Shown here in pieces: positions 5,358-49,866 of a stretch of 64,000 nt of DNA. A program made the position numbers and the translations under genes. Location of the stretch: contig JBLYPW010000003.1 of assembly GCA_048538275.1 (NCBI GenBank), positions 15,248-79,247 of the forward strand, read 5' to 3'. How positions within the stretch are numbered: position 1 is the first letter of the stretch; each line of letters begins with the position of its first letter. The DNA comes from Candidatus Komeilibacteria bacterium (GTDB lineage Bacteria > Patescibacteriota > Patescibacteriia > UBA1558). Below the pieces are notes generated by a model. That model was not told the DNA's origin. It saw only the letters and a program-made list of their open reading frames with translations, and ran no database searches.

Positions 5358-5394
5358 ATTGATATTCCCTTTTTATTAAAATACAAATGAGCTG

Positions 5395-5973: not shown

Positions 5974-5987
5974 ATAAACATTATAGG

Positions 5988-6001
5988 TGAACGTTCGTTC
6001 A
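5988..6001. promoter_or_regulatory. LexA operator (Cheo-box-like palindrome TGAACGTTCGTTCA, GAAC-N4-GTTC)
   Basis: A perfect GAAC-N4-GTTC palindrome lies immediately upstream of the preferred lexA start. It matches the Gram-positive SOS box consensus CGAACRNRYGTTCG. Confidence 0.55.
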
Positions 6002-6084
6002 CTTGTCAAGGAAATGATTGTGGACAAGTTTGGCTGTAACACAATTCTTTTTTATCCGTCTAAATAAGTAGAGAGGAAAAAAAT

Positions 6085-29928: not shown

Positions 29929-32900
29929 TGTTTAATCCCCAACAAAAATTAATCTCTAGTATTGTATTGGTGGTGATGTTGTTTTTTGTTATCAGTGGTG
30001 CTGTGGTGACTCCACAGCCGGCTCATGCTTCTACGTTTGGTGTCATTGCCGTCAATACCGCCAAGTGGGTGTGGGAGAAAGTGGGTGATATTTATACTGC
30101 CTTAAAGTCGCGTTTAAGCACGACATTAATTACTAATTCGGTTGATTTATTTGCGCAGCGCATGGCGGTAAATATGGCTAAAACACTAGCTACTGGGGGA
30201 AGAGGTCAGCAGCCGATGTTTAGTACCAAGGTTTTTAATGATGTTGTGAAGGATGCAGCTGGGGCAGCGGCTGGTGATTTTATTGGGCAATTGAGTAGTG
30301 CGTGGGGTGATTTAGGCATTAATTTATGTGAGCCCAGTCTGGATGTAAAGGCTACCATCACTATGTCATTGCTTAAATCGCAGAAAGCGCCAGAACCAAA
30401 ATGTGATCTTGCTAGTGTAGTACGTAACTGGGATAGTTTTATTAAAACAAATACTGACCCCAAGGCCTTGGCTGAAGGCTTACAGGTGCAGTTTCAAACG
30501 GGAAAAAGTGATTTTTCTGCGTCTTTTGCTTTGAATAATAAATTATTGAACCAGATAAAAAGTGATGAACTGGTAGCATTGTTTGATACAGAAAGCCAAG
30601 GATATAAAAGCAAAACCAATACTACGAATACCGAAATTCAAACTCCTAGCTCTTCGGTAGAAGACACAGCGGAAGCACCAGCTAGAGAGGCTAGCAATGC
30701 GCAGCTGGCTAAAACCTTTGCTGCTATTACCAGTCAGGATACTATCTTTGGCAGGGCTTTGAGTACATTTGGTAATACTTTTCTTTCCCAGTTATTAAAT
30801 CGTTGGATCTTAGATGGCATGAATAAACTGAATAATTGGAAAAATAGTCAGGTAGCCAGTACTGGCGGGGCGAATAGCATAAATTTTGATAATAATTCTG
30901 GGCCTGGTCCTGAAGCGGCTAGCGCCTACTATAGTAATTTAATATCAGTGAGTTTCAATAGCGTAGATGACTATACACCAACGTCTGATTTTACCATTTG
31001 TCCAACTACGGGTATTGTCCCATATAATAATTGTGTGATGAATCAAAAGTTTTATTCTGCGTTCAATCGTACTCAGCCCATGACAGTGCAACAAGCGATT
31101 GATGCTAAATTATTGAGCCCTGATTTGCCTTTGATTAGCCAGGATGATCCACGTAACAATGATGTTAATTATTGTTATAATAGTGCTTTGTGTTATTCTA
31201 ATTTGCAAAAAATGCGTTTGGCTCGTTTGATTCCCTTGGGCTGGGAAATTGCTGCTAGCATAAGCTCAGCTAACACTCCTGCGACCATGGGTGAGGTTTT
31301 GGCGGCATTTGATAACCCAGATAGCCCTTATCATAATTTGATTGATCCCAATTGGGTATTAAAAGAGCCACGAGCACAATGTTTGGCTATGGGTCCTGGA
31401 CCTCAATTACAGTCTATTGGCAGTGACCAACGTACGGAGATGTGTGTGGACAGTCAGACTTGTCTGCGTAGTGATGACAATGGTGAATGTTTGCCGGGAG
31501 CGTGGGGCTATTGTACACGCGAAGAAAATATTTGGCGCTTTGGTGGTCAGCAGTGTTCTCCGGCTTATGCTTCTTGTCGTAATTATAAGGCTGATGGGCA
31601 GACATACAGCTATATCAAAGATACTTTAGATTTTTGTACGGCTGATGAAGTGGGTTGTCAGTGGTATAGCGTAGCTCAAGAATTGGGTGCTGCTGCCACT
31701 GAGACTTTTAGCCCTCCCCAAGTAGATTTTAATAATGTTCCTTCCACTATTACATATGACCAGGCGTCGGCTGATCAGTTTTGTTTGCAGCGGGGCTATG
31801 ATTTTGCTCAAAGTTATGACCAAGAGGGAGCCGGCACAGGAGATATCATTTGGAATAGTGAGCAGAGTAGCTGGGAGTTGAATACCGCTGCTGCGCCACA
31901 TGCTATCATCTCAGATATAAGCTGTGTGAGGCAAGGGTATGATTGGCTGGCTGATGAAAACATTTATCTGAATGCTCAGGCTGGTGATTGCGACGCTACT
32001 GATGCCGGTTGTACTAAGTTGTTACCGATCCAATGGGGAGTTAATTTATTATATAATGGTGGTTTTGAAAAAGTAGGTTCTAATAATAACAGGCCAGACG
32101 GCTGGTATTGGTCTGACACTGATGTAAGTTTAACTGACAACAGATCAGAAGTTTTCGCTGGTGAACGAGCTGTCAGCACTATGAATAATTATAGTTATGT
32201 CTATACTGATGTGCCATTGATTGGTGGCCTACCTTATTATATTGCCATAGCCGCCAAAACCAATGATAGTAAAGCGATGGGTGTGACCATTAAGTTTTAT
32301 GATAGCAACGACGCTCTTATCATGCCTACTAATGATGATGATATTGATATAGGCGATAGTAGTGTGGTGAATTGGCGTGAGGGCTGTGGTGGTGGCGTCT
32401 GTCATTTTAGTGGCGACCTGACTATAACCAATCAATATGTTAAATATGACTTGCCTTTTATAGCACCGGAGGGAGCTGTCAAAATTATTATTGGTATGGG
32501 CACTGGTGGTGCCGGTTCTGGTGATGTTTACCTTGATAATGTCCAGCTCAGCCTTGGTAATTCAGCTATGAGTTATCGTGATTATAATAGTAATTCTTTT
32601 AATTATCTTAAAATAGCCCCGGATTATTTAGATTGTAGTAATAGTAGCAGCGTAGAATGTGCCAATTATGCCCCTAGCTGTACGGCTGAGGAAATGGGAT
32701 GCCAATTATATACTCCGGTAAATGGTGATCCGGCCGTGGCGGGCGTGGTAAATAGCGGTGATTATTGTAGTCAAAGTTGTGCCGGATTGGATCAATATTG
32801 GCAAAAACAAACCACTATTGAAAATATGTTTGGTGATGATCCGGCCGGTGCTTTTGTGAATTTTATACCCAGCAGCGCCCAACAATGTCAGGTGCAAGAT

Positions 32901-35900
32901 GTGGGCTGTGAAGAATTTACTAATTTAGATAGAAATGAAGCGTTAGAATATTATAGTGATCTGCGTATGTGTGTATCAGAAGCGGATGTAGATATAGCCA
33001 CTTATTATACTTGGGAGGGATCGGATACGGCCGGTTATCAGCTGAAGACTTGGCGTTTGTTGAAAAGTAATGATAATGATGGCCCTTGTACAAATATAGC
33101 TTTTGATGGAGAAAACAATATTTGCGTTGATAGTGAAGTGAGTGCGCCTGCTTGTGATACTAGTGCCGGTGATGATTGTCGTACTTTTATTGATGCCGAG
33201 CAAAATAGTTTTGTAGTGAACCAAGCGCAAGTTATCAAAGCTAGCGCCGATTGCACGCTTGTGCGGCGCACTGCAAACCCTCAGGATATTGCCGTCATTT
33301 TGCCTAGCGAATCAAATAGTTGTACAGTTGCTGCTGTTGGTTGCCATGCTTATCAAGGCAATAGCGCTGGTAATACGCGCATTATAAGTTATGATGATTT
33401 TGAAAGTGGTCAAGCCGGTTGGAGTGGCGGTGGTTTGACGACAGAGTCTTTAACAGCCGGTGGACATTCGCTTTGGAGCAATGGTGATATAAACAAATCT
33501 TTATTCATTAATGATAATCATAGTTTCACCCTTTCCTTTTATGCCAAGAGGCAAGAGATCGGTAATTCTAATTTGTCAGCTCAATTATTGGTCGGTGATC
33601 ATGTTTATGATTTGGGGAGCGTTGCTATTAATGATGAGTGGCAACAGTATGCCTTGGGTCCGATAGGTGTTCATGAAGCTAGTAGTGAGATTTTGGAAGC
33701 GACATTGCAATTTTCCATTGGTAGTACGACAGGCTATTTTTTGGATAATATAAATCTTAAGCAAATTAATTCTGATTTGTATTTATTAGCTGGTTCTTGG
33801 CAAACACCAGATATATGTTTGAACGGTAATAATGGTCCGGTGCTGGGCTGTCAGGAGTATAAGGACGTAGCTAATAATAGCCATCATCTCTATCAGTTTT
33901 CATCTTTATGCGGTGAGGATAAAGTAGGTTGCAGCGCCTTTATAAATACGCAGAATAGCACTAGTCCTTTAGCGCAGAGCTGGCCGATGGGAGCGGATGA
34001 TGAGATCATTACTGTGTCGGCTGATAAACTAGTTTATCTGGTGGATCGTCCTGAGTTTAGGTGTGATGCTGGGGTCCAAGGTTGTTCGGCTTTGGGTGAA
34101 CCGGTGATGCAAACAGATCCGGCCACTGGTAATCAGAGCGTGGCCAGCTGGTCTGATGTCTATAAATTGAATAATCCGGATAATTATGAAGGTTCTTTGT
34201 GTCGGGAAGATGCCTTATATTGTCGGGCCTATCAAAGTGATGAAGGCGTTGTCTATATCACTGATCCGGGCGACAAGACTTGCGCTTATCTGGAAAATTA
34301 TACTTACGATGGCACAACTTATGAGCCGGGCTGGTATTTGAGCAGTAGTTTATCCGGCGAGCCACAGGAGTGTGGCCCAGGCATTGAGCTACCAAAACGC
34401 CGTGACGACAACTACCAAGGTTATGCTGGTTTATGCATTCCAGAGGCCAATGGTTGTACCGAGTTTATTGATCCGGTAGGTACTACCGGCGATGATTTGA
34501 TCCGCAATGGTAATTTTGAGTTTAATAATAATACGCTTACTACCCCAGATTTTTGGAGCTATAATAAGAATTTGGCTGATAATATTCGTTGGGATGCGAG
34601 TGAGGGCTGGGATGATAGTTATGCTGCTAGTGCTCTTTATGCTGATAATACGTCTTATGTGCAGAATATTTCAGGATTATCTGGCGGTGTAGATTATGTG
34701 GTGCGCATAAAAGCCAAAGGAATTGCCAATGGTGATAGACTACGTCTTGGTTTGGAGTGTGAAGGAGCAAATATTAGCTCCCGAGACAATAGTTTTATTA
34801 TCAGTGGTAATGTGGGTGATAGGCAATTTATCATTAATAATACTAATGGCGATTTTGTAGATGTCTCGGCCAAGTTTAGAATCAACAATAATATAGATAA
34901 TAATAGTTGTGATATAAGTTTAGGATTTGCGGGCAATGATTTAGATGGTCGTTATTTTGATAATGTTAGTGTCAGGCGCTTGCAGTCTTATTATTATATA
35001 AACGATGACAAGCTTAATGGCGTTAGTTGTAGTGGGCAGGTTTCACAGGATAAGGGGTGTGTTTTGGTAGAAGATACGTCACAATTGTCATTGGATGATG
35101 GGCAGATAATCACTCAGTATGATAGTAGTAGCACGTATCATAATAGCACACAAAATAGTGGTAATTTGGTATTGCCAGTCAGTTGCCAAGATGGATCAGT
35201 CGGTTGTGATGCTAATCGTATTATTAGTGTTAGTCGTGATCGTCAATGCTCAGAGTGGCTAGCTTGTCAGTCTTCTACTGTTATCACTCAGCCTGATGGT
35301 AGCCAACAACAATTGTGCTATGATCTCGGTCGTTGTACTCAATTGTCGCCGGATGGTACGCAATGTTTACAGTGGGTGGATAGGCCGGTGACAGAGAAGC
35401 TGGATGTGGCTAAGTACCAGTCTCGCGAAGTAGGCTGGTCGGGGCAGGATTATAGTGGTTATTCTTTGTTGGATATACCGCCTTTGGAGACTTTGGTGTC
35501 TAGTGCCAATAATGATACTTTGACTTTGCATTTGCCGACTGGCACTGAAGGTATGTCATTTAATTCCATATCGCCCTCTTGTCGTCTTTATCCCAGCACC
35601 AATGCGCCGTTTTCCACAGAGAATATGACTGTCCGACGAGATGATAATGGTAATATTATAAGCAAACCGCAGACTTTTGCGCAGGCTAATCTTTGCGATG
35701 AAGGCGGCGCTGGTTGTGAGTGTAGCTATCGGGAGATAAGTTATAGTCAGGGAGAAACTAGGTATTATGGTTTGGACTATCAATATCCTGATGCTATTAC
35801 TCACACGGATGGCTCTCCAGACAGTACTATAACCAAGATAAATGAATATCGTGGCGCTTGGGGATTCTGTTTACAAAGAGATATGTCCCGTACTATTCAA

Positions 35901-38567
35901 GGTGTCGGCGGTCAAGAACATCCTTGTATTACTTGGTTGCCATTGAATATATTAAGCGGAGAATATGATCCTAATGCTGTTGATGTGCAAGCTTCATTAA
36001 ATTTGCCTATCGGTAATATGTATTATTGCGCTGCAGGTAGTAGTGACGAAGTAACTCTGCCATCTGGTGATTATAGCAGTCTTGTACAATTTGGAGATAT
36101 GTCCCAATTAGATAGCGGTGATCTGCCACAGGGTGGGTGGACGGCGTATCCGAGTAATGTTTCTAATCAGCAAGGGTCGTCTTGCATTAGTTATCCTGCT
36201 GCCAATCAGGGAACTAGTTGGATGGAACTTTATGCCCCATCAGGTTCGTGTTATATAGAGAACAATAATTTGGGTGATGTTACGCTAGGTCCTGATAATC
36301 AATATCATTATCGTTTGACTTTTGAGTTGGGTGATATATATGGCACTATTAGTGATCAAATACCTTATTTCGCGGTTGAATTATCGTGTAATCAGACAGA
36401 CTATCTTGCTACTATTCCTGACGGTGGAAATGATGATGTTTTATTGGATATTAATTCTCCGGTTCCTTGTGATTCTGTTGTTGTGGGCGTTGTTGGTAGT
36501 GGCGAGGAAAGATTAATGCAGATCAGAAATTTAGTAGTATCTACACCTGATTATATTACGCAACAACAAACCATGTGTACCGATATAGTGCAAGTTGAAT
36601 ACCCCAAATTCAATCAATTAATTAATCCGCCTGTTACTTTGGCAGCTTGGCCCAATCAGTATAAAGATTGGTATGGACGAATGTCCGTCTCTGCTGATAC
36701 TGTTTTGAATAATTATAATACCCCAATTAATGTAGAGTCGGTGGGGCAGTTTTCTGGCGTGGATGTAATTAATAGTGCTGGGACACCTTATAGTAATATT
36801 TCTGGTAGTGAGGATATACCCTATTCTCAATGTGTGGGCGTTGCAGCTGCTGCGGGCGCCACTTGTGCCGGCGGTGAGAGAGAGGGTCAGTCATGCAGTA
36901 GCGACATGCAGTGCCCCGTGAATCACAATGATACTTGTGAAGGTTATATAGAGTCTCAAATTGATCAGAGCAGTTGTGATTATGAGGCTGGCCAATATAC
37001 TCATTGCGATACTATTCCTGAAGTTATGGGCACCTGTGTTAATTCTGGTGCTAGTTGTCGTGTTGATAATGATTGCGCTCCTTATAATACTTACGCTATT
37101 TGCCAATCAAGTAACGCTACATACGATTGTCACACAGACGAGGGTAAAGATAATTGTTATGCAGCCGGTGGTCGTTGCTTGGGTCTTGATACAGCTACTC
37201 CACTGACCGTATATAATCAGATTAATGATGTTGATAATACTGGATTTGCCAATGTTTTTAGTGTTATTAAGGAATTATTTGCAAAAATAGTAGCTCGTTT
37301 CAGTTGGTCAAATGGTAGTTATCAATCAAATAGTAGTGAAGTAGGCGGATCAATCAGTGATGCCGAAGTGGTCACAATCAGGCCAGTTATCACCCTTGCT
37401 GGCGAGGAGACAGCCGGATCTAGCAAGGGCATCACTATCAATAGCAAGACAAGCGGTGATATTTCTTTTGCTAAGGATAGTGCCAATGTTACCATGAAGT
37501 TTTATGCTTATAATGTAAGCGGTGATCAGATACCGTTGAATAATTTAGTAGTGGACTGGGGTGATGGTAGTATCTTTGGTGGTTCAGGTAGCGGGAATTC
37601 TATTGTACCAGGTGACGTGTCATTGAAAAATCATCAATCCATGTGTATTAATAATTGTTCTACCGGCATACTGGACGATGCTTTTGGTGCCCCGGCGTTT
37701 TCTGCTACTGCTAATAATTTTAATTTTTATGCTTATCCCAATACCCAGCACGATTGGCATTCAGGCTATGCTTATATGACGCAAAAAACAGGATATGATG
37801 CATCTAATAATTCAACTCGTAATTGGATGACATTGCGTTTGCCAGCGAATAAGATGAGTGCTATCCCTCGTTTTGCCGCCGGAGATGTGTTGACTTTGGA
37901 GTATGATTATCAAATTAGTCCTGGCTTCTTAAAGAATGGAATAGCAAATCATATTTGTTATGGTATCGGTTATTGTAGTCAAGGCAAGCAGTATCCCTTT
38001 TTGAGCTTTGCCACGCTTGACAGTATGGATGATTTTGATAGCCATGTTAATACTTGGGGACATTATAGCAGCACAGCCGTAGTGACCCCTGATATGGTTA
38101 GCGCTTGCGTGGATAATAATAATCCCTCCGGTTATTGTTTGCGAGAACTGGCGGTAGCGAATTTGCGTGATCAGGCATTGGCCTCCCCACAAACTATTAG
38201 AATTAAAAATGTTCATTTGTTGTGGGGTTGTCGTAATAATAATAGCTGTACGGCCAGCAAATTTGGCAATCTGGGTCAGTGCCAAGCCATAGATATCGGC
38301 GATGACTTGCGTTTTTGCGTGGATGACTATCAAAATAGCATTGGTTATTTTAGCTTTAATCATACTTATACTTGTGCTGATCCGAATCCACCTGGTGATA
38401 TTGATGGTAGTAGTAATTCTTGTATCTATAAGCCTAAAGTTTATATAGAAGATAATTGGGGCTATTGCACGGAGGGGAGTAGTAATGTTTGTAAAGATAA
38501 TTATTCTAATTCGATACAATCTACTGGTTGGTTTGAATATCCAGGCAGTATAAGATTAACACCATAG
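29928..38567 (+). CDS. Giant (2879 aa) secreted Cys-rich surface protein with three CBM4/9-like beta-sandwich modules
   Basis: Has a signal peptide (…VTPQPAHA/S), more than 100 Cys often in paired spacing, and three modules. The modules begin LLYNGGFE...GWYWSD...VYLDNVQLS, ISYDDFESGQAGWSGG...YFLDNINLKQ and LIRNGNFEFNNN...DFWSY...RYFDNVSVRR. It is one uninterrupted 8.6-kb ORF in an AT-rich genome. Confidence 0.7.
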   Translation: MFNPQQKLISSIVLVVMLFFVISGAVVTPQPAHASTFGVIAVNTAKWVWEKVGDIYTALKSRLSTTLITNSVDLFAQRMAVNMAKTLATGGRGQQPMFSTKVFNDVVKDAAGAAAGDFIGQLSSAWGDLGINLCEPSLDVKATITMSLLKSQKAPEPKCDLASVVRNWDSFIKTNTDPKALAEGLQVQFQTGKSDFSASFALNNKLLNQIKSDELVALFDTESQGYKSKTNTTNTEIQTPSSSVEDTAEAPAREASNAQLAKTFAAITSQDTIFGRALSTFGNTFLSQLLNRWILDGMNKLNNWKNSQVASTGGANSINFDNNSGPGPEAASAYYSNLISVSFNSVDDYTPTSDFTICPTTGIVPYNNCVMNQKFYSAFNRTQPMTVQQAIDAKLLSPDLPLISQDDPRNNDVNYCYNSALCYSNLQKMRLARLIPLGWEIAASISSANTPATMGEVLAAFDNPDSPYHNLIDPNWVLKEPRAQCLAMGPGPQLQSIGSDQRTEMCVDSQTCLRSDDNGECLPGAWGYCTREENIWRFGGQQCSPAYASCRNYKADGQTYSYIKDTLDFCTADEVGCQWYSVAQELGAAATETFSPPQVDFNNVPSTITYDQASADQFCLQRGYDFAQSYDQEGAGTGDIIWNSEQSSWELNTAAAPHAIISDISCVRQGYDWLADENIYLNAQAGDCDATDAGCTKLLPIQWGVNLLYNGGFEKVGSNNNRPDGWYWSDTDVSLTDNRSEVFAGERAVSTMNNYSYVYTDVPLIGGLPYYIAIAAKTNDSKAMGVTIKFYDSNDALIMPTNDDDIDIGDSSVVNWREGCGGGVCHFSGDLTITNQYVKYDLPFIAPEGAVKIIIGMGTGGAGSGDVYLDNVQLSLGNSAMSYRDYNSNSFNYLKIAPDYLDCSNSSSVECANYAPSCTAEEMGCQLYTPVNGDPAVAGVVNSGDYCSQSCAGLDQYWQKQTTIENMFGDDPAGAFVNFIPSSAQQCQVQDVGCEEFTNLDRNEALEYYSDLRMCVSEADVDIATYYTWEGSDTAGYQLKTWRLLKSNDNDGPCTNIAFDGENNICVDSEVSAPACDTSAGDDCRTFIDAEQNSFVVNQAQVIKASADCTLVRRTANPQDIAVILPSESNSCTVAAVGCHAYQGNSAGNTRIISYDDFESGQAGWSGGGLTTESLTAGGHSLWSNGDINKSLFINDNHSFTLSFYAKRQEIGNSNLSAQLLVGDHVYDLGSVAINDEWQQYALGPIGVHEASSEILEATLQFSIGSTTGYFLDNINLKQINSDLYLLAGSWQTPDICLNGNNGPVLGCQEYKDVANNSHHLYQFSSLCGEDKVGCSAFINTQNSTSPLAQSWPMGADDEIITVSADKLVYLVDRPEFRCDAGVQGCSALGEPVMQTDPATGNQSVASWSDVYKLNNPDNYEGSLCREDALYCRAYQSDEGVVYITDPGDKTCAYLENYTYDGTTYEPGWYLSSSLSGEPQECGPGIELPKRRDDNYQGYAGLCIPEANGCTEFIDPVGTTGDDLIRNGNFEFNNNTLTTPDFWSYNKNLADNIRWDASEGWDDSYAASALYADNTSYVQNISGLSGGVDYVVRIKAKGIANGDRLRLGLECEGANISSRDNSFIISGNVGDRQFIINNTNGDFVDVSAKFRINNNIDNNSCDISLGFAGNDLDGRYFDNVSVRRLQSYYYINDDKLNGVSCSGQVSQDKGCVLVEDTSQLSLDDGQIITQYDSSSTYHNSTQNSGNLVLPVSCQDGSVGCDANRIISVSRDRQCSEWLACQSSTVITQPDGSQQQLCYDLGRCTQLSPDGTQCLQWVDRPVTEKLDVAKYQSREVGWSGQDYSGYSLLDIPPLETLVSSANNDTLTLHLPTGTEGMSFNSISPSCRLYPSTNAPFSTENMTVRRDDNGNIISKPQTFAQANLCDEGGAGCECSYREISYSQGETRYYGLDYQYPDAITHTDGSPDSTITKINEYRGAWGFCLQRDMSRTIQGVGGQEHPCITWLPLNILSGEYDPNAVDVQASLNLPIGNMYYCAAGSSDEVTLPSGDYSSLVQFGDMSQLDSGDLPQGGWTAYPSNVSNQQGSSCISYPAANQGTSWMELYAPSGSCYIENNNLGDVTLGPDNQYHYRLTFELGDIYGTISDQIPYFAVELSCNQTDYLATIPDGGNDDVLLDINSPVPCDSVVVGVVGSGEERLMQIRNLVVSTPDYITQQQTMCTDIVQVEYPKFNQLINPPVTLAAWPNQYKDWYGRMSVSADTVLNNYNTPINVESVGQFSGVDVINSAGTPYSNISGSEDIPYSQCVGVAAAAGATCAGGEREGQSCSSDMQCPVNHNDTCEGYIESQIDQSSCDYEAGQYTHCDTIPEVMGTCVNSGASCRVDNDCAPYNTYAICQSSNATYDCHTDEGKDNCYAAGGRCLGLDTATPLTVYNQINDVDNTGFANVFSVIKELFAKIVARFSWSNGSYQSNSSEVGGSISDAEVVTIRPVITLAGEETAGSSKGITINSKTSGDISFAKDSANVTMKFYAYNVSGDQIPLNNLVVDWGDGSIFGGSGSGNSIVPGDVSLKNHQSMCINNCSTGILDDAFGAPAFSATANNFNFYAYPNTQHDWHSGYAYMTQKTGYDASNNSTRNWMTLRLPANKMSAIPRFAAGDVLTLEYDYQISPGFLKNGIANHICYGIGYCSQGKQYPFLSFATLDSMDDFDSHVNTWGHYSSTAVVTPDMVSACVDNNNPSGYCLRELAVANLRDQALASPQTIRIKNVHLLWGCRNNNSCTASKFGNLGQCQAIDIGDDLRFCVDDYQNSIGYFSFNHTYTCADPNPPGDIDGSSNSCIYKPKVYIEDNWGYCTEGSSNVCKDNYSNSIQSTGWFEYPGSIRLTP

Positions 38568-38589: not shown

Positions 38590-38618
38590 AACCGGTCTAG
38601 TTTGCTACTAGACCGGTT
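38590..38618. terminator. Hairpin AACCGGTCTAG-N7-CTAGACCGGTT between the convergent giant gene and T9SS-CTD paralog 1
   Basis: 11-bp perfect stem. Confidence 0.45.
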
Positions 38619-38638: not shown

Positions 38639-39889
38639 TCATTTCAACAAAATCATCTTATATGTTTTGTTGAAGTTACCGGCCCGCAACTGGTAGAAAT
38701 AGATTCCCGTTCCAACTTGCTGTCCGGCATTATTAAGACCATCCCAAACCACGGCCTGATACCCTGCTGCTTTTTCATCGTTCACCAAAATTCGGATTGG
38801 TTGACCAAGCTGATTGAAGATGGTCAGGCTTACCAAGGCTGGTTCGGGCAGTTCATATGATATGACCGTACTGGCGTTGAACGGATTGGGATAGTTTTGC
38901 TCTAGCGAGTATTGCTGTGGCATTGACAATGAATTGGTTGGAATAATAGCGGTCACCAGGTCAGTACTCACAATGTCTCCTTGATAATTGACCATCCAAA
39001 GGATCCCGTTCTGATCCTTCATAATATCATTGAATAGCACACTTATACCGGTAGGGTAGCTTTGCCACGAGTTGCCATTATCAATAGAGTGATGCATATC
39101 GTGTCCAGCGGTCACGATTTCTGTCGGGCCTGCCATGAACAAGGTCATGGTGTAGTCATTTGGGTTGGGATTACTGATTTCATCCCATGTTTGGCCATTA
39201 TCATTGCTTTGCAATAATAAACCTCCCAAAGCTGCAAAAACAGTGCCGTTGTTGTGATCCATATCATATACACGGCCCTCTGAGACGTGATCGCTAACAA
39301 TGGTCCAGCTTTCACCATAATCAATTGATCTGAGCATGACATACGGATCGCCACCGGCTAAGAGTACGCCATTACCCAAATAATCAACACAGTATAAGTA
39401 ACTCTCAGTCACGCCGGCGCCGACTTGGGTCCATGATTCCCAACCGTCTGATGTTTTGATAATAAATCCATCGTCACCTACTGCAATCGCATCATTGTCT
39501 GACCAAAATACCAGGTCGTGAACCGGATGTCCGTCAAGGCGTTTCCATTCCCAGTTTAAACCAGCGTCAACACTTTTGATTATAACGCCATGGCCTAAAG
39601 AGGCCCACCCGCTAATATAAAAAATACTGTCATCAATTGCAACCATTTTTTTTAAGTGCCAACCTAGATTTTGTTGCAACACAAAATGATCAGACTCCGG
39701 CGTTTTCAGAAGCCAGGTGCCGTTGGCACCGACCATATTGATATTGCCATTCGGTTGAATGGCAATGCTGGACAGGCTGTAACCTACCGGACTTTCCCAG
39801 TAGGTAAACTGTACGTCTTGAGCTTCCTGACCAAGCAGGTTACCGTTACTCAAAATAACCAAAATCATTAAAGACATCATCTTTTTCAT
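38639..39889 (-). CDS. Secreted BNR/Asp-box repeat beta-propeller protein with T9SS-type C-terminal sorting domain (paralog 1)
   Basis: A signal peptide is followed by Asp-box motifs (KSVDAGLNW, SIDYGESW, SNDNGQTW, SIDNGNSW). The C-terminus NYPNPFNASTVISYELPEPALVSLTIFNQLGQ...GIYFYQLRAGNF matches the Por secretion CTD pattern. Confidence 0.6.
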   Translation of the reverse strand: MKKMMSLMILVILSNGNLLGQEAQDVQFTYWESPVGYSLSSIAIQPNGNINMVGANGTWLLKTPESDHFVLQQNLGWHLKKMVAIDDSIFYISGWASLGHGVIIKSVDAGLNWEWKRLDGHPVHDLVFWSDNDAIAVGDDGFIIKTSDGWESWTQVGAGVTESYLYCVDYLGNGVLLAGGDPYVMLRSIDYGESWTIVSDHVSEGRVYDMDHNNGTVFAALGGLLLQSNDNGQTWDEISNPNPNDYTMTLFMAGPTEIVTAGHDMHHSIDNGNSWQSYPTGISVLFNDIMKDQNGILWMVNYQGDIVSTDLVTAIIPTNSLSMPQQYSLEQNYPNPFNASTVISYELPEPALVSLTIFNQLGQPIRILVNDEKAAGYQAVVWDGLNNAGQQVGTGIYFYQLRAGNFNKTYKMILLK

Positions 39890-39989
39890 GATGAGCCCTC
39901 CTTTTTCTTTAATTTATTGTTTTGTTAGTTTTCAAGGTTCTTTATCTCCTGAAAAAGGGGATAAATTATCACTTTTATGATAACATATT

Positions 39990-40018
39990 ATCATACATTA
40001 TTTTAGTAGATTTGTCAA
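39990..40018 (-). promoter_or_regulatory. Promoter of paralog 1 (minus strand): TTGACA-N17-TATGAT
   Basis: The minus-strand read is TTGACAaatctactaaaataatgTATGAT. The identical sequence recurs upstream of paralog 2 at 41509-41537. Confidence 0.45.
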
Positions 40019-40192
40019 GCTAAGTAGGGCTGGCTCATTTTTTTTAATATTTCTTCCCTTATTTGATTTTTCTAGCTATAGTACCAGATTGATTAGGGTC
40101 AATCCAGCCTAGCTAGTTCAATCGTGCTTTGTACAGGTGGCAAATAAAAAAGCCGATCTTTGTTAAGACCGGCTTGGTTTATTTTTTGATTA

Positions 40193-41443
40193 TTATTTTA
40201 TTATTGTTAGTTTTCTACTCAGTTGTTTATTCTGAGCAGTTATAACAACAATGTATGTGCCACTGGCAATATTGCCCGGTGACCAGTTAATCTCGTGCTG
40301 CCCAGCTGTTTGCCAGTTATTTATCAGCTGAGCCATTTGTTCACCTTTCATATTATATACAGACAGTTGAACTTGCCCGGACTGTGGCAGTTCATAGCTT
40401 ATGACCGTACTGGCATTGAAAGGGTTGGGATAATTGGGCAAAAGCGCATAATCCTGTGCGCTTATTGGCTCGGTTTCAAGGGCGGTGATATTGTATTCCG
40501 CACTTAAAATTATTCCGTTATAGCTGATAGTCCACAAGACTTCATTAATTTTTAGCTGGGCGCTGAAGAAATCCATACCGTCCAGTGGAGGATCAATGAT
40601 ATGTGACTGCCAAGTATTGCCATGATTTTCTGAGGCGTGTAATAGTTGGCCGCCCGTTATTATTGTCTGTTCATTCACCACAGTAAGCACCGTAGTCGGA
40701 TCAAAATTATCCGGAGTAGTAGGATAATTTATCACATTCCAGCTCAATCCCGCGTCATTACTGATCAAGATGGCATCCAGAGCGGTTGCATATATGGTAT
40801 TGCCACTGGTTTGCATTGTGGATATGCCCCAACCACCTATATTATACATAACCAATGACCAGGTGACGCCATAATTATCAGAGCGATAGATGCTATTGCT
40901 AAAGGGGTAGCTACCCATCAGCAAAACACCGTCACCAAGTTCCAGTAGGCCGTTTAAGCCGCTGCTAATGTCAACGCTCATTACTTGCCAACTGGACCCG
41001 CTATTCATTGATTTGGCCATAAAGCCGTTTGCCCCTACTACCAACATAGTTGAATTTGATAATTCAATTATGTCATAAATATGGGTTGCTTGGTTGAAAA
41101 CGGTTTTTGTCCATCCCGACTCATCACCTCGCAACACATATCCTTCGCCACGACTATGACCACCGACAATATAGAAATTATTGTCAGAGCTTAGCAGGGC
41201 ATCATACACTTCTTCGTGATCCAACTCTTTTATGAGCTGAAGACCAAATTCTGTATCATCCGGTGCTTTTTTGAGCCATATCCCGTTATTGCCGAATACA
41301 TTGATTGTGTCATTATTCGGTACGATGGCACGCAGCTGGCCAACCACTGGTGGATGATCCCAACTCATTATATTGGTAATACCAGCTATTGCGGTATTAT
41401 ACACCAATGATATTGCCAAGGTTATAATAAAACTTGATTTCAC
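40193..41443 (-). CDS. Secreted BNR/Asp-box repeat protein with T9SS-type C-terminal sorting domain (paralog 2)
   Basis: Same length (416 aa) and architecture as paralog 1. Asp-box motifs are SMNSGSSW, RSDNYGVTW, SNDAGLSW and SENHGNTW. The C-terminus NYPNPFNASTVISYELPQSGQVQLSVYNMKGE...GTYIVVITAQNK follows the same CTD pattern. Confidence 0.6.
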   Translation of the reverse strand: MKSSFIITLAISLVYNTAIAGITNIMSWDHPPVVGQLRAIVPNNDTINVFGNNGIWLKKAPDDTEFGLQLIKELDHEEVYDALLSSDNNFYIVGGHSRGEGYVLRGDESGWTKTVFNQATHIYDIIELSNSTMLVVGANGFMAKSMNSGSSWQVMSVDISSGLNGLLELGDGVLLMGSYPFSNSIYRSDNYGVTWSLVMYNIGGWGISTMQTSGNTIYATALDAILISNDAGLSWNVINYPTTPDNFDPTTVLTVVNEQTIITGGQLLHASENHGNTWQSHIIDPPLDGMDFFSAQLKINEVLWTISYNGIILSAEYNITALETEPISAQDYALLPNYPNPFNASTVISYELPQSGQVQLSVYNMKGEQMAQLINNWQTAGQHEINWSPGNIASGTYIVVITAQNKQLSRKLTIIK

Positions 41444-41508
41444 GAGAAACCTCCCTACATTTTTGGTTAAAGTACAATTTTTATAGCTAAGCTATAAATA
41501 ATTATATT

Positions 41509-41537
41509 ATCATACATTATTTTAGTAGATTTGTCAA
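41509..41537 (-). promoter_or_regulatory. Promoter of paralog 2 (minus strand): TTGACA-N17-TATGAT, abutting the repeat element
   Basis: Identical 29-nt promoter block to the one at 39990-40018. The -35 hexamer ends exactly at the left inverted repeat of the element. Confidence 0.45.
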
Positions 41538-41675
41538 CCCCGTTAGAGGTTTAGATAATTTTTTAACCTATTTTTACTATAGTTTTGCTTAGGTTTTGTG
41601 TCTAGTGTTTTTTAGTTACACTATATTGTATATGGTGTAAGAAAGTGTATTTATAGACCCAAACCTCTAACGGGG
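41538..41675. repeat. MITE-like intergenic element, copy A (138 bp) with 15-bp terminal inverted repeats CCCCGTTAGAGGTTT ... AAACCTCTAACGGGG
   Basis: It is about 85% identical over its length to copy B at 49732-49866. It has perfect terminal inverted repeats, is AT-rich internally and has no ORF. Confidence 0.6.
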
Positions 41676-41739: not shown

Positions 41740-44700
41740 GTGTTAAAACCTTTTCGGCCAGCGAAAAAAAAGAATGGCTATCGGCAACTGCGGGCAGTAC
41801 AATTACCCCTGGTTGTCTTGTTTTTGTTGGTGGCGGGAGCCGCTCTGTTTTGGTTGGTACCGCAGCCGGTCTTGGCTGTTGCTAGTATTAGTGATGCCAT
41901 TGCTAGCGCTCTAGCTACTATTTTGAATTGGGTGCTGAATTTTATTGGCAGCTTGATTAGTTCTATCCTCATACCCGTATTATCGCAATTGGCTGTTTTT
42001 AATGACTTTACCGGCTCCGGAGCCGTGGTGCAGGGATGGAAGTTGGTGCGTGATATCTGCAACATGTTTTTCATTGTCATGATGTTGGTGATATCAGTGG
42101 GTACAGTATTGAATATATCTTCTTATAGCTATAAGAATTTTCTTAAAAAGATTATTTTTATGGCTATTTTAATAAATTTTTCTAAAACCATTGCTGGTGC
42201 TTTGATTGATGTCGCGCAAATCGTCATGCTGACTTTTGTCAGCGCTTTCAAGGATAGCTTGATCGTGGGTTTTGCGCAGGCTTTTGGCTTGAATAAATTG
42301 ACCAGTTTAGGGACTACTGTGAATGACGCTGGCTATGTTGAAAAAGACAATTGGTCTATTTTGATGGGCGTTGTTTTTGCTATAGTGATAGCGGCCATAT
42401 TAGCGATTGTTTTGATTGGTATGATTATTATGTTAGCTGCCCGTATTGTGATGTTATGGGTTTTGGTAGTCTTATCACCCTTTGCGTATTTGGCCAATAT
42501 TTTGCCCGGCCGCTTGTCTTCATTGGGTGGACAGTGGTGGAAACAATTTACTGATCAGTTGATAGTTGGCCCGGTAATTGCCTTCTTTTTATGGTTAGCT
42601 TTATCTGTTGCCGGATCACCGGGTGGTTTTATTGGTGAAAACGTTGATACGAGCAATCAGCCTACCAGTTTGATTGACAGTAGCTTGGCTAATGCTAGTT
42701 TTTTGATGAATTATGTGATGGGTATTTTGATGTTGATAGTGGGTATGAAAATGGCTAAGAGCATGGGTGGAGCGGCCGGCGCTGCTTTTGGTAAGGGCAC
42801 TGGTTGGGCGCAGAAATATGGTTGGCAAGGGGTCAAGGGATCTTTCAAAGGCGTTGGCAAGTCTGTTTCTTGGGCTAGAGATGCTAGTAAGGCTTTTGGT
42901 CGTAAAGGGGGTAGTAAAGAATATTTGGATGAATTGGATCAAAAACGTGACGCCTATGCTGCTCGGGGTGGCGTTATGGGAACTTTAAATTCTTTGCGCT
43001 TGGCACGTAAAATTGATAAATATAAAGGTAGGGAAAAGAGTAGAAAGGAAGCAGCGGGGATTGTTTTGAAAAAATTTGGTTTGGATGGCGAGGCCGCTCA
43101 AAAGACTTTAGTGACTGCTAGTCAAATAAGGGAAGATAAGAAAAAAAATAACATTAAGAGAGTAGTTGTTGATGAGGTAAGTAAGGAGTTTGCCGGTGAT
43201 GATAAATTAGCGCAAGTGAAGACAGATATTAAGACGAAAAAAGCTAAGACATTGTTATCTGGTGATAAAGAAAGCGCGATGATGAATTATTATGCTGATA
43301 AAGAAATCAACGTCACCGAAGAAGATAAACAGGCTTATCGTGAAAAAAATCCCTCTGCTATATCGCCAGATTATGATTTGACTGATGATCAGCTGCGTGA
43401 AGTCAGGGAACAGAAAACCAAAACGGCCTGGCAAAAGTTGAGCAAAAAGGAACAAGGTGAATGGCAGGACAGGTTTTTGCAGGATATAAATAATAAACCA
43501 TTTCTCAATGAACAACCAGTTACTGAGGAAGATATAGAGCAGTTCAAACAAGAAGAAATAAATCAACGTACGGAAGCAAAGTTGAAAGATTTTACTTATA
43601 GGCCACGGGGCATGAGTATGACCGCTCCGGCTAATATTATGCGCTATGCGGTTGACTGGGCTAAGGGCAAACAGGAAGACCGTTTGAATATGGAAAAATT
43701 AGGTCAGGTTTTGCCCGCTAATCCTGACTCTTTTAGAGCTTATAATATTTTGGATCCATTGAACGCAGTTAAACCAGCGGCAGCAGAAGCGATCATGAAA
43801 CAAATGGACGCGAATGCAATATATAAGCAGTATAAGCATTTGGATGACAAAGTAAATGATGCCGAAACCAAAGAAAAAAGACAAAAGGCCAATAAAGCAA
43901 GAACAGCATGGCTAATGGGAGCCCAATTTCTTAAGGGAAAATTATCTCAAGTGGATGAGTTCCTTGGTCGTTTACCAGATGGTGTGAGCGTGGTGCAGCC
44001 TGATGAAAAGGTTGAGGCGTTAAGTAGTGTTAAAATAGAAAAATCCAAACGTGATTTCCGTGTGGACAATACCGATATTGAAAAAATGGAAAATACCAAG
44101 CGTGCCGCCATGGAACACATGATAAGCCTGGGACCCGAAGAGACGGTAAATAGTATTAAAGGTGAGTCTGGCTGGCAGATTGACACGACCAATTCTGACT
44201 TGGATGCCGATCAGGTGGTGCTGAAAAATGGTGATCAAAGTCAAACTATGACTACGGATCAATTTGTACGTAGCAACGGCAAGTTAATGTCGGAGCGATT
44301 TTATGATAGCGCTAGCGCAAAAATGGGTAGTGATAATTTTGTGGAGAAAGATAAGTTTGATGACTATACTCGGATACGTCAGAGTAGCCAATATGGCGTT
44401 ACTTTGCGGGCCGGCAATGACAAAGCAGCGGTTGATTTTGATCGTTTGCAAGAAGTAGTTGGTGACAAATTGGATATAAACGATATAGCTTTGCAAGGTG
44501 AAAATGTTAATGGTGATGAAGCTGTGATTATTGCCAATGGTATGCGACAAATGATAGAAGAGCAAAAGCAGGCTTTGGCTGACAGCGAAGATGAAGAACA
44601 GACCAGGCAGATATTGTTTGATTATTTTGGTAAAGATACGTCGGCCTCTGGTGAAAAATTGGCAAAAATAAAAAATGAAACCTTGATAAACGCGGATGCC

Positions 44701-46875
44701 AATATAGCAAATTTGGACATGGCCGATGCCACAAATGTTCAAACAATGCGTGAAAATGGTTTGCGTTTATTTAACAAACATCGGGCGGGCGGAGAGATAA
44801 GGCAGTTGTACGAACATGAAACTAAACATGGTTGGTTGGATAAGGTTGATCCGGATAAATCTATGCGCCAGCAAGCTTGGGCCGATATGACAGAGACAGA
44901 TCGCCAGGCTGCCAAAGATTATATTATACGCACGAGAGGCGAGGGTGATTGGACTGATGAAGAAATCGCTGGTGAGTATTTGGTGGATGCTTTGCAAAAA
45001 CGGCAAAGCAAGGATTCGGCTGAACGACCACCAGAGTTACCACAAGCTATTAAGCGACGTTTCACGGAAGCAGAAGATTATCAGATAAGTGAAGAATCTG
45101 GCTCAGCAGTAGATCATGAGTCTATGATCAAGACTTTAGCCGGTAAATATGTTGCTCGTAAAAATATCAAACAGCAAGATTATGAACAATCAGCCAGAGA
45201 ACAAAATACCTCTTTCTTGAATGCGGCTGCCAGAGCCGAGCAAGCGAACCAGCAAGCCAAAGTTGAGTTTAAGACAGCGACTAGTAAAGCACGACAAGAC
45301 AGCATTGGCAGCGCGCCCCAATCTATTGGCGGTAGCCAAACATTTGTTAGTACTGCACAGCGAGCTGATTTGGAAAAACGTTTTGGCCGCACTCTTTCTA
45401 GTGAAGAAGTTAAAAAATTCTCCGATATGAAGCGTAAAGAATTGAACCAAACAATAGAGGGGGAAAAGGCCAAGCAATTACGACAACAAGAGTCTGAGCG
45501 CGCGGCCGAGCTTAGTAAACAATATTATAGCGAACAAGAACGTAAACAGGATTATCTACGCAACAAAGCCAAGGAAGTTAATAAATATAGAGACGAGCAA
45601 AAGTATTATAATAATAATGCGGCAGCTCGTCAGGTGATAGCTGATAATGTAAAAAGTGGTGACTTGCCTATTGGTCAGTTAATGAAAATGAGTTCTACGG
45701 AAAGACAAGAACAACTTACCAATCTTTTACAACAAGCTGTCAAAGAGGGCGGGCTTGATGTGCAAGCTGAGTCATTACCCGCTATTGTTAACAATATAGA
45801 GGCGCAGCTGGATACAGAGGATATTAAAGTAGGTAACACATATGATCAAGGAGTAGCTTATCAAGCTTTACAGAGTCAGGCTAAGACGGATAAGAAGCTA
45901 GCAAATGATGCTGGTAAAGAAGCTGATAAATCTGTTAAATTTTGGGACAAAGAGATTACCAAGATTGATAGATCTGCTGGTCAGATAAAGACACGGGCAG
46001 AAAAAAGCGCGGCAGCTGCCAAGGCAACGACGACTGGCGGAAGTGATGCAATATCATCAATGCGCCAGGAATCAGCTAAACAACAGTCTGGCAAAAGACC
46101 AGTAGCGCCCAGCACAAGCAGTCGTTCTGATAATATGCCCGCTACTGGATCAGATGGAGTTGAACGAATGGAGCAGCGGTCAGAGCAGCGGTCAGAGCAG
46201 CGGTCAGAGCAGCGGTCAGAGCAGCGGTCAGAGCATGAGCGTAAGACCGACACGAGGACGCAATCCAATCAGACCGGGTCGGCTGAAAAGAAGGCTACGG
46301 ATCGTGTGATTCGTAGTGAAAAGAATACTATCACTTCGTCAGAAGCTGGCGCAAAGCCTGCCAGTCCGACAGCTGCACCGGCTGCCAAACCGCTTGGCAA
46401 AGCGACAGAGGCACCTTCTCAGCCAGCAGGCAATATAACTAGTACGGTTGAGCAGAGTGATAAAGTAGTTGGATTGTTAAATGATATTAGAGGTTTATTG
46501 AACGGACGTACTGGTCCTATAGCAGCCAGCAATACGTCTGTTATGGGACAGGCTTTGATGTCGCCGCAGCAATTTAAGTTATTAAAAAAACAATTTCAGT
46601 CTTTGGCCGCCAGTATAGCTGCCAATAAATCAAGTCAGAAAGTACTGGGTCAGGAAACAATGGATAAGTTAAATCACGTGAATAGCGCCTTACAGTCCAC
46701 GCAAGTAGATGATGATCATGATGTTGATATTGATTTGACAATGCAGGCAATGGATATAAATCCGTCCGACCTGGCCGCGATTTTAAAGAAAGTGGAGGAG
46801 CAACAAAAGAAAGATGCGGAAGATGATCAGGATGATGATATCCAGCCGCCCGCTAATTTACCAACAGCCACTTAG
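41740..46875 (+). CDS. Giant (1711 aa) polytopic membrane protein with about 1350-aa charged, low-complexity C-terminal region; VirB6/TrbL-like architecture is speculative
   Basis: The N-terminal roughly 340 aa have 6-8 TM helices. Downstream are a Gly-rich linker (GGAAGAAFGKGTGW) and a long E/K/Q/D-rich region with coiled-coil character that contains a (EQRS)5 repeat. Confidence 0.6.
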   Translation: MLKPFRPAKKKNGYRQLRAVQLPLVVLFLLVAGAALFWLVPQPVLAVASISDAIASALATILNWVLNFIGSLISSILIPVLSQLAVFNDFTGSGAVVQGWKLVRDICNMFFIVMMLVISVGTVLNISSYSYKNFLKKIIFMAILINFSKTIAGALIDVAQIVMLTFVSAFKDSLIVGFAQAFGLNKLTSLGTTVNDAGYVEKDNWSILMGVVFAIVIAAILAIVLIGMIIMLAARIVMLWVLVVLSPFAYLANILPGRLSSLGGQWWKQFTDQLIVGPVIAFFLWLALSVAGSPGGFIGENVDTSNQPTSLIDSSLANASFLMNYVMGILMLIVGMKMAKSMGGAAGAAFGKGTGWAQKYGWQGVKGSFKGVGKSVSWARDASKAFGRKGGSKEYLDELDQKRDAYAARGGVMGTLNSLRLARKIDKYKGREKSRKEAAGIVLKKFGLDGEAAQKTLVTASQIREDKKKNNIKRVVVDEVSKEFAGDDKLAQVKTDIKTKKAKTLLSGDKESAMMNYYADKEINVTEEDKQAYREKNPSAISPDYDLTDDQLREVREQKTKTAWQKLSKKEQGEWQDRFLQDINNKPFLNEQPVTEEDIEQFKQEEINQRTEAKLKDFTYRPRGMSMTAPANIMRYAVDWAKGKQEDRLNMEKLGQVLPANPDSFRAYNILDPLNAVKPAAAEAIMKQMDANAIYKQYKHLDDKVNDAETKEKRQKANKARTAWLMGAQFLKGKLSQVDEFLGRLPDGVSVVQPDEKVEALSSVKIEKSKRDFRVDNTDIEKMENTKRAAMEHMISLGPEETVNSIKGESGWQIDTTNSDLDADQVVLKNGDQSQTMTTDQFVRSNGKLMSERFYDSASAKMGSDNFVEKDKFDDYTRIRQSSQYGVTLRAGNDKAAVDFDRLQEVVGDKLDINDIALQGENVNGDEAVIIANGMRQMIEEQKQALADSEDEEQTRQILFDYFGKDTSASGEKLAKIKNETLINADANIANLDMADATNVQTMRENGLRLFNKHRAGGEIRQLYEHETKHGWLDKVDPDKSMRQQAWADMTETDRQAAKDYIIRTRGEGDWTDEEIAGEYLVDALQKRQSKDSAERPPELPQAIKRRFTEAEDYQISEESGSAVDHESMIKTLAGKYVARKNIKQQDYEQSAREQNTSFLNAAARAEQANQQAKVEFKTATSKARQDSIGSAPQSIGGSQTFVSTAQRADLEKRFGRTLSSEEVKKFSDMKRKELNQTIEGEKAKQLRQQESERAAELSKQYYSEQERKQDYLRNKAKEVNKYRDEQKYYNNNAAARQVIADNVKSGDLPIGQLMKMSSTERQEQLTNLLQQAVKEGGLDVQAESLPAIVNNIEAQLDTEDIKVGNTYDQGVAYQALQSQAKTDKKLANDAGKEADKSVKFWDKEITKIDRSAGQIKTRAEKSAAAAKATTTGGSDAISSMRQESAKQQSGKRPVAPSTSSRSDNMPATGSDGVERMEQRSEQRSEQRSEQRSEQRSEHERKTDTRTQSNQTGSAEKKATDRVIRSEKNTITSSEAGAKPASPTAAPAAKPLGKATEAPSQPAGNITSTVEQSDKVVGLLNDIRGLLNGRTGPIAASNTSVMGQALMSPQQFKLLKKQFQSLAASIAANKSSQKVLGQETMDKLNHVNSALQSTQVDDDHDVDIDLTMQAMDINPSDLAAILKKVEEQQKKDAEDDQDDDIQPPANLPTAT
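46171..46230 (+). repeat. Five perfect tandem copies of GAGCAGCGGTCA (12 nt) inside the 41740..46875 CDS
   Basis: They encode EQRSEQRSEQRSEQRSEQRS, and a degenerate sixth unit (GAGCATGAGCGT) follows. Confidence 0.8.
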
Positions 46876-49731: not shown

Positions 49732-49866
49732 CCCCGTTAGAGGTTTAGATAATTTTTCAACCTATTTTTACTATAGTTTCTTCAGGTTTTATGTTTAGTG
49801 TTTTTTGTTGAACTAGATTATATGTGGTGTAGGGAAATGTATTTATAGACCAAACCTCTAATGGGG
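49732..49866. repeat. MITE-like intergenic element, copy B (135 bp), with terminal inverted repeats CCCCGTTAGAGGTTT ... AAACCTCTAATGGGG
   Basis: About 85% identical to copy A. It lies between the rpsF promoter and the htpX stop codon (49867-49869). Confidence 0.6.

Follow-up and report, generated by a model that had tools for sequence, protein, structure and literature searches.

Why should a bacterium of the candidate phyla radiation (CPR) carry, side by side, two genes whose products end in a type IX secretion system (T9SS) sorting domain? The C-terminal domains (CTDs) in question are treated as a marker of T9SS cargo in diderm bacteria of the Fibrobacteres–Chlorobi–Bacteroidetes (FCB) superphylum. 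The two genes lie in a stretch of 64,000 nucleotides, hereafter called the window, of a contig assigned to Candidatus Komeilibacteria (GenBank assembly GCA_048538275.1, contig JBLYPW010000003.1, positions 15,248–79,247). The original prediction, made from the letters of the window, had reported two tandem open reading frames (ORFs) of 416 amino acids (aa) with a shared CTD motif about 80 residues before the stop. This observation on the gene pair was confirmed in every detail, coordinates and lengths included. The genes and their CTDs are located as follows.

38639–39889, minus strand: paralog 1 (P0002, NCBI MFW0838059.1), 416 aa, with a signal peptide, a Ycf48/BNR-like beta-propeller and a type A CTD
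38642–38896, minus strand: CTD of paralog 1 (residues 332–416), an Ig-like beta-sandwich; TIGR04183 score 37.1 bits against a cutoff of 23
40193–41443, minus strand: paralog 2 (P0001, NCBI MFW0838060.1), 416 aa, GTG start, architecture as in paralog 1
40196–40435, minus strand: CTD of paralog 2 (residues 337–416); TIGR04183 score 46.7 against 23, PF18962 score 38.1 against 27

The two proteins were 32% identical overall. They had in common the sequence NYPNPFNASTVISYELP, which started at residue 332 in paralog 1 (85 aa before the end) and at residue 337 in paralog 2 (80 aa before the end). Their N-termini, MKKMMSLMILVILSNGNLLGQ and MKSSFIITLAISLVYNTAIAG, were judged by eye to be signal-peptide-like, and an AlphaFold2 (AF2) model placed a helix at residues 2–14. 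The first 330 residues or so of both proteins matched the BNR/Asp-box, Ycf48 and sortilin propeller models. Neither the family of the domain nor its annotation at NCBI is new: both proteins, recorded on a 110.9-kb contig of a metagenome-assembled genome labelled Candidatus Komeilibacteria, are named “T9SS type A sorting domain-containing protein” by PGAP.

The affiliation of the CTD was examined with three profiles, TIGR04183 (NCBIfam, T9SS type A sorting domain; curated cutoff 23 bits), PF18962 and PF13860 (cutoff 27 for each). The first was passed by both proteins, with the scores listed above, and PF18962 by paralog 2 alone, paralog 1 scoring 18.1; the profile evidence that the original prediction had proposed to look for was thus obtained. 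Paralog 1 also passed PF13860, the FlgD_ig family (33.2 bits). The domain, with a length of about 80 aa, had the size and placement expected of a type A cargo domain (about 70–90 aa at the extreme C-terminus, behind a signal peptide and a passenger). It displayed the PNPFN, G.Y and terminal K..L.K motifs of such cargo; the invariant positions were PNPFN, I.Y.L, G, G and G.Y. The CTD was under purifying selection, with a ratio of nonsynonymous to synonymous divergence (omega) of 0.13–0.23, and was more conserved than the propeller in every comparison. By its profiles and motifs it genuinely belongs to the family of T9SS type A CTDs.

The structure models agreed with this assignment and also marked the limit of what the fold can tell. 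The full-length AF2 model had a mean pLDDT of 76.7, with values of 93–97 in the CTD and a confident propeller core; a model of the CTD alone (paralog 1 residues 326–416) reached a pLDDT of 92.1 and a pTM of 0.83. In Foldseek searches the CTD matched PorU (TM score 0.71–0.73), PorZ, NucA in the T9SS complex (8glk_D) and mirolase. A comparison with T9SS CTDs had been suggested from the outset, and the superposition on these Ig-like beta-sandwiches bore it out; but FlgD and the Ig-like domains of Gram-positive subtilases matched about equally well, and the fold was rejected as a discriminator between a T9SS CTD and these domains. FlgD structures were matched at 30% identity and a TM score of 0.63. 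The window proteins, however, lack the FlgD N-terminal domain, and the similarity is explained by the kinship already recognised among Ig-like domains of this sort.

The best structural match of the propeller was Ycf48 (E 3e-11), followed by GH74, PorZ and sortilin, and paralog 1 passed PF14870, the seven-bladed Ycf48/HCF136 propeller family (36.5 bits against 27). The score of the Ycf48 equivalog NF010237 (326) was not reached by either protein (40.9 and 19.5 bits), so the likeness is limited to the level of domain and fold; the proteins are not Ycf48 orthologs, the context is non-photosynthetic and a CTD has been added. The F510_1955 glycosylhydrolase/GH74-like equivalog NF045728 was likewise missed (46.2 and 27.9 bits against 175), and the NCBIfam scan gave no catalytic family at cutoff for either protein. 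The propeller is best read as a predicted binding module with no catalytic family assignment. A similar overall plan was seen in PorZ of Porphyromonas gingivalis (PDB 5m11), which consists of propellers followed by a T9SS CTD and was matched by both the full-length and the CTD-only model. PorZ, in contrast, contains two propellers and forms part of the attachment complex of the T9SS, and at 10–16% identity there was no evidence of orthology.

What kind of cell makes these proteins? The leucyl-tRNA synthetase (LeuRS) of the window was 76–78% identical to that of other Komeilibacteria, and its further named matches were mostly Patescibacteria. The gene order was kept over more than 20 kb in relatives (T2SSE, FtsH, four-domain S1, GyrA, M23, LeuRS, MFS, KsgA, a TSP3-repeat protein and a giant protein of about 2.87 thousand aa). 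From these identities and this synteny the host is a member of the Komeilibacteria, within the CPR, as its “CPR-like” appearance had suggested. Of 35 window ORFs that were scanned, 33 with Pfam and 12 with NCBIfam, none belonged to a T9SS or outer-membrane family, in line with the earlier remark that no T9SS context is visible in 64 kb. Neither the window nor the relatives' loci showed a core or attachment gene of a T9SS (GldK/L/M/N, SprA, PorV, PorU). A custom CTD hidden Markov model found the two known CTDs and no third one in the window. The type IV pilus set of the window (PilM, PilB, PilT and PilC) lies beside housekeeping genes and has no secretin with it. The Patescibacteria have been proposed to have no outer membrane and to possess type IV secretion systems of the monoderm type (2025 study, PMC12102498). 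The host bacterium is probably single-membraned. In this respect the proteins differ from type A cargo: in a CPR host without a visible T9SS and presumably without an outer membrane, translocation across the outer membrane, cleavage by PorU and attachment to anionic lipopolysaccharide are probably irrelevant, and the CTD must serve some other function.

Is the pair an accident of this genome? It lies between two large genes that define a slot.

29928–38567, plus strand: left border of the slot, a giant, Cys-rich secreted protein of 2879 aa that matches no Pfam family
41740–46875, plus strand: right border of the slot, 1711-aa polytopic membrane protein, VirB6/TrbL-like by the annotations of its homologues

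The corresponding slots of relatives were reached through homologues of the 1711-aa protein, whose gene is transcribed divergently from the pair. JGI contig Ga0675941_002039 (locus L086; LeuRS 76% identical) contained, between the giant gene and the VirB6-like gene, two tandem minus-strand genes for propeller proteins with a Por_Secre_tail domain (407 and 425 aa), both of fully native composition. GCA_043819715.1 had one 406-aa propeller-CTD gene in the slot together with an IS200-like Y1 transposase gene, and Parcubacteria CG1_02_37_51 had a 5′-truncated remnant of the slot gene together with the same kind of transposase gene. In both of these genomes a protein made of a beta-helix, a dockerin and a CTD was encoded a few genes from the slot. 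All five CTD proteins of Komeilibacteria-clade relatives that were tested passed TIGR04183 (33–44 bits). Because the relatives carry slot and beta-helix proteins that pass this profile, CTD-bearing secreted proteins are a feature of this CPR clade, with at least two types of passenger. The slot was occupied in at least four Komeilibacteria-clade genomes, the window included, and the relatives came from different projects. By this comparison of loci the gene pair occupies a conserved slot and is not a one-off acquisition. New here are three further Komeilibacteria-clade genomes with CTD genes in the same slot, two of them with a different passenger as well.

The IS200-like Y1 transposase genes in or next to the slot were found at 9311–9916 of locus L088 (GCA_043819715.1), at 9309–9914 of L089/L090 (CG1_02_37_51) and at 7421–7921 of L085. 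The position of the truncated slot gene of CG1_02_37_51 beside such a gene is consistent with turnover at the site.

Relatives of the family outside the clade were sought among the GTDB species representatives with the family alignment, which returned at least 588 confirmed matches; the titles of the best 80 were assessed. Most of these 80 titles named Ignavibacteriota, Balneolaceae, Marinimicrobia, Calditrichia, KSB1, Zixibacteria, Latescibacterota, Gemmatimonadota and groups akin to these; roughly ten gave no phylum, one was labelled Acidobacteria, two were of Bacillota type and none bore a CPR name. Full-length identity among these best 80 was at most about 28%. The statement that the CTD is normally confined to Bacteroidota-type diderms was therefore too narrow, the best 80 matches being mostly from other phyla by record title. 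The nearest full-length homologues sit among other CTD genes, one of them beside a POTRA-domain gene. Two contigs (L026 and L048) of metagenome-assembled genomes (MAGs) labelled Bacillota and Syntrophomonadaceae also had propeller-CTD or CTD proteins, and another CTD protein was labelled “[archaeon]”; either the contigs were mis-binned, or these are additional instances of a T9SS-type CTD outside T9SS lineages.

A scan of metagenomes with the propeller of paralog 1 yielded a single distant match, at 20% identity. An exhaustive representative search with the same propeller returned one close relative, P0303, with 80% protein identity. P0303 is encoded on a 23-kb Logan contig (L087) with a GC content of 52%, among three other CTD genes. 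The ABC-F, GH20, D-aminoacylase, HisK_N and 233-aa CTD proteins of this contig fell into clusters at 90% identity or more with MAG proteins of Candidatus Marinimicrobia/Neomarinimicrobiota, and at the corresponding position a second Marinimicrobia MAG, GCA_021734045.1, contained a partial ortholog, whose identity was 89% with P0303 and 83% with paralog 1. By their naming convention, the names of Komeilibacteria MAGs appear to imply GC contents of up to 53%, which had raised the idea that L087 is a high-GC Komeilibacterium. This was rejected, the contig not being syntenic with the Komeilibacteria locus and its flanking proteins clustering with those of Marinimicrobia.

The homology between paralog 1 and P0303 began 17 nt upstream of the start codon and ended about 40 nt short of the stop, between unrelated flanks. 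Its 5′ limit coincides with the following element.

39890–39901, minus strand: ribosome-binding site and spacer of paralog 1, GGAGGGCTCATC, the same in the Marinimicrobia copy

The two genes were 84% identical at the DNA level, with a synonymous divergence (dS) of about 0.45, and formed a significant mosaic: the variance of windowed identity was five times its mean under permutation, and the longest stretch of exact identity measured 65 nt (P = 0.0025). Horizontal transfer, one of the origins first considered, is indeed involved, and the alignments with two Marinimicrobia genomes document the passage of one allele between Komeilibacteria and Marinimicrobia. Paralog 1 and P0303 were compositionally intermediate between the two genomes, with a codon-fit difference of about 0.01–0.02 (window genes lie at +0.21 ± 0.035, Marinimicrobia genes at −0.24 ± 0.054), and composition pointed in neither direction. 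P0303 is a low-GC gene in its genome, with a GC content at third codon positions (GC3) of 0.46 compared to 0.57–0.62. The closest sequences to paralog 1 and P0303 were paralog 2 and the L086 gene (107–110 bits, compared to at most 91 bits for 149 representatives of the exhaustive search), and for this reason export from the Komeilibacteria is favoured. In our judgement, which leans only slightly to this side, the allele would have moved from Komeilibacteria to Marinimicrobia.

The history of the pair itself could be read from its internal similarities. The original prediction had offered concerted evolution or recent duplication as explanations. The propellers of the two paralogs were 31% identical and their synonymous sites were saturated, so the duplication is old, and a recent tandem duplication was rejected. 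Even among the 17 codons that the two CTDs share, 6 differ synonymously, including AGC versus TCA. Concerted evolution held up. The two promoters of the window were identical at 34 of 34 positions, the two L086 promoters being about 65% identical (counted from the sequences), and a short tract of the CTD showed the same effect.

38861–38881, minus strand: micro gene-conversion tract in the CTD of paralog 1 (TTC AAC GCC AGT ACG GTC ATA), with its partner in paralog 2 at 40400–40420

In this 21-nt tract paralog 1 matched paralog 2 at 20 positions, synonymous sites included, and P0303 at only 11, whereas outside the conversion signal the gene has the 84% identity to P0303 reported above. In the L086 pair the CTDs were 91% identical in amino acids with a dS of 0.29, compared to 35% and a dS of about 2 for the propellers. 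These patterns indicate that gene conversion acts on the window pair (the promoter and the 21-nt tract) and on the L086 CTD. In L088 the CTDs of different passengers were, by eye, roughly half identical and not homogenised; conversion thus seems to be limited to tandem paralogs.

The promoters and terminators of the two genes were as follows.

39985–40018, minus strand: promoter of paralog 1 (TTGACA, 17 nt, TATGAT), exact 34-nt repeat TTGACAAATCTACTAAAATAATGTATGATAATAT
41504–41537, minus strand: promoter of paralog 2, the identical 34-mer TTGACAAATCTACTAAAATAATGTATGATAATAT
38590–38618, minus strand: intrinsic terminator of paralog 1
40150–40175, minus strand: intrinsic terminator of paralog 2

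The promoters had been described as identical and indeed form an exact repeat, which reads as a near-consensus sigma-70 promoter (11 of 12 matches). No exact 34-nt repeat is expected by chance; this one occurs twice in the window, with no copy in any of the loci retrieved. A GGAGG ribosome-binding site precedes each paralog. Read from these signals, both genes are independently transcribed units, each with its own promoter, ribosome-binding site and terminator. The upstream regions of slot genes in different genomes had in common the motif TTGACAAA..CTAAAAT..TGTAT.

An element of about 138 nt resembling a miniature inverted-repeat transposable element (MITE) was present twice in the window in the same orientation, at 41538–41675 (copy A) and 49732–49866 (copy B), the copies being about 90% identical by eye. 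It has perfect 15-nt terminal inverted repeats (CCCCGTTAGAGGTTT ... AAACCTCTAACGGGG) and a predicted RNA fold with z = −6.3. Each copy adjoins a TTGACAAA −35-like box on the minus strand. Copy A directly precedes the promoter of paralog 2, and copy B precedes a run of genes beginning with S6 (S6, SSB, EF-P); in relatives an S18 gene lies between SSB and EF-P. Unrelated palindromes were seen in relatives at the same position upstream of the slot genes. The element may supply or select promoter positions.

We propose that the two proteins are Sec-exported binding proteins of the cell surface or the extracellular space, in which the type A CTD would serve as a T9SS-independent Ig-like module, and we consider this explanation probable, though by no means secure. 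In this model, Sec would carry the propeller-CTD proteins to the cell exterior, where the CTD would hold the propeller on a surface or contribute to ligand binding. Candidates for this surface are the envelope of the epibiont itself, the giant protein encoded beside the pair and a partner cell. The CTD-bearing family is common to these Komeilibacteria and bacteria of the FCB superphylum and is still exchanged with the latter, as the Marinimicrobia allele shows, and the genes for the giant surface protein and the VirB6-like protein would make the neighbourhood one of cell contact. Since no T9SS gene was visible and the Patescibacteria are presumed to be without an outer membrane, Sec alone would place the proteins outside the cell, and the CTD would most likely be T9SS-independent.

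Several points weigh against this proposal. The absence of a T9SS refers only to the 64-kb window and to about 116 kb of partly overlapping relatives' loci. The surface location and the ligand are putative. The fold is common to T9SS CTDs, FlgD and further Ig-like domains, so the structure does not reveal the partner. The slot gene can be lost, since it is 5′-truncated in CG1_02_37_51. Both window genes are outliers in codon usage, and the slot occupants of different genomes are 23–28% identical, with equal or better matches outside the clade; a long vertical residence of the window alleles in the slot is for these reasons not proven. A clean monophyly of the Komeilibacteria propellers was suggested at first and weakened by the wider comparison. 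Given the matches outside the clade, the sequences are equally compatible with hyper-fast divergence in the slot and with replacement of cassettes.

The codon usage could indicate that the genes are neutral leftovers of transfer from FCB neighbours, with a CTD that has no function in a CPR cell, and the truncated remnant and the IS200-like Y1 transposase genes beside the slot fit such a view. Leftovers would hardly be expected, however, as intact ORFs in three genomes, each with a near-consensus promoter, a ribosome-binding site and a terminator, nor with an omega of 0.13–0.23 in the CTD and the invariant motif residues kept; the slot has moreover persisted across genomes at the LeuRS distance given above, and the L086 genes are native in composition. 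We regard this explanation as unlikely. An assembly or binning artefact, in which an FCB fragment was misplaced in a CPR contig, would account for the close relatives of one gene in Marinimicrobia and for the GC3 of the pair, which is at the top of the window's range. It is effectively refuted: genes of this kind fill the slot in three further Komeilibacteria-clade assemblies, and on this synteny a chimeric assembly was rejected. Both junctions are intergenic, the promoter motif is common with the relatives, the flanks are Komeilibacteria housekeeping genes, and the MITE-like repeat beside paralog 2 recurs 8 kb away in the window.

Two further explanations keep the CTD in the service of a T9SS. 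If a cryptic T9SS, or another machinery able to read CTDs, were encoded elsewhere in the genome, the two proteins would be ordinary cargo. The presence of the CTD on at least two types of passenger in the clade is what a cargo family would show, and the DNA inspected is part of the genome only. Such a system would nevertheless require an outer membrane, which the Patescibacteria are proposed not to have, their type IV secretion systems being of monoderm type (PMC12102498). The pilus set without a secretin, the lack of any T9SS family in the window or the relatives' loci, and the named titles among the best 80 of at least 588 matches, almost all of FCB type (two of Bacillota type) and none of CPR, also speak against it, and we find it very unlikely. 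The T9SS could instead belong to a partner: the Sec-exported CTD would be recognised by PorV, PorU and PorZ of an FCB-type cell, for instance a Marinimicrobium, and would tether the epibiont to it. Such a capture would make sense of a canonical CTD kept under purifying selection in a lineage without a visible T9SS, and of a slot that adjoins genes for cell-contact functions, VirB6-like and giant surface protein. The allele held in common with Marinimicrobia, where it sits among other CTD genes, demonstrates gene flow and hints at physical proximity. A further hint that it gives is that a CPR-type CTD can be tolerated by a genome in which adjacent genes bear this sorting domain. Physical association is, however, conjectural, and gene sharing can come from co-occurrence alone. 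Two matters of T9SS biology count against capture as well: in the systems studied, recognition of the CTD takes place during exit from the periplasm, and a T9SS is not known to capture an external substrate. Tethering of this kind is in our view quite unlikely. It seems decidedly improbable that PorV, PorU or PorZ on the surface of an FCB host, for which the shared allele makes Marinimicrobia the candidate, would capture or covalently attach the CPR proteins, the host's secretion and attachment system becoming the anchor of the epibiont. A T9SS-independent role of the CTD on Sec-exported proteins is the explanation that we retain.

Some features of the surrounding genes are added here. The giant protein was kept in length (2786–2874 aa) and position in four relatives, some of which gave a faint CBM_4_9 signal. 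It is preceded by the gene of the small TSP3-repeat protein, whose stop overlaps the start of the giant gene. The 1711-aa protein has no Pfam family itself and ends in a long, charged, low-complexity tail with RSEQ repeats. The named ones among its 255 homologues were almost all from Patescibacteria; a few carried PF04610/PF19590 (TrbL/VirB6) and one was annotated as VirB6-like. No VirB4 family was seen among the window ORFs scanned. At 409–2202 (minus strand) a 597-aa protein with similarity to TolB-like propellers passed TIGR04275, a beta-propeller repeat of Methanosarcina type (92.7 bits against 85); it carries no CTD. At 4047–6042 (minus strand) a gene for a DinB/IMS-family translesion polymerase adjoins one for a LexA/UmuD-like autoproteolytic repressor; the two make up an SOS-type pair, here in a CPR genome that is reduced.

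Our survey of the literature found nothing relevant on T9SS CTDs in CPR or Patescibacteria. What is new is a conserved slot whose genes are selected and undergo gene conversion, in a lineage where the cognate machinery is not visible, together with an inter-phylum allele that names a candidate partner. The CTD very probably has a job that is independent of the type IX system: it must act without a T9SS, or act on another cell. Type IX secretion does not follow from the annotation “T9SS type A sorting domain” taken alone. The identity of the host is one of the main open problems for CPR organisms, and the allele shared with Marinimicrobia provides a concrete, testable lead to the partner or host of an uncultured CPR lineage.

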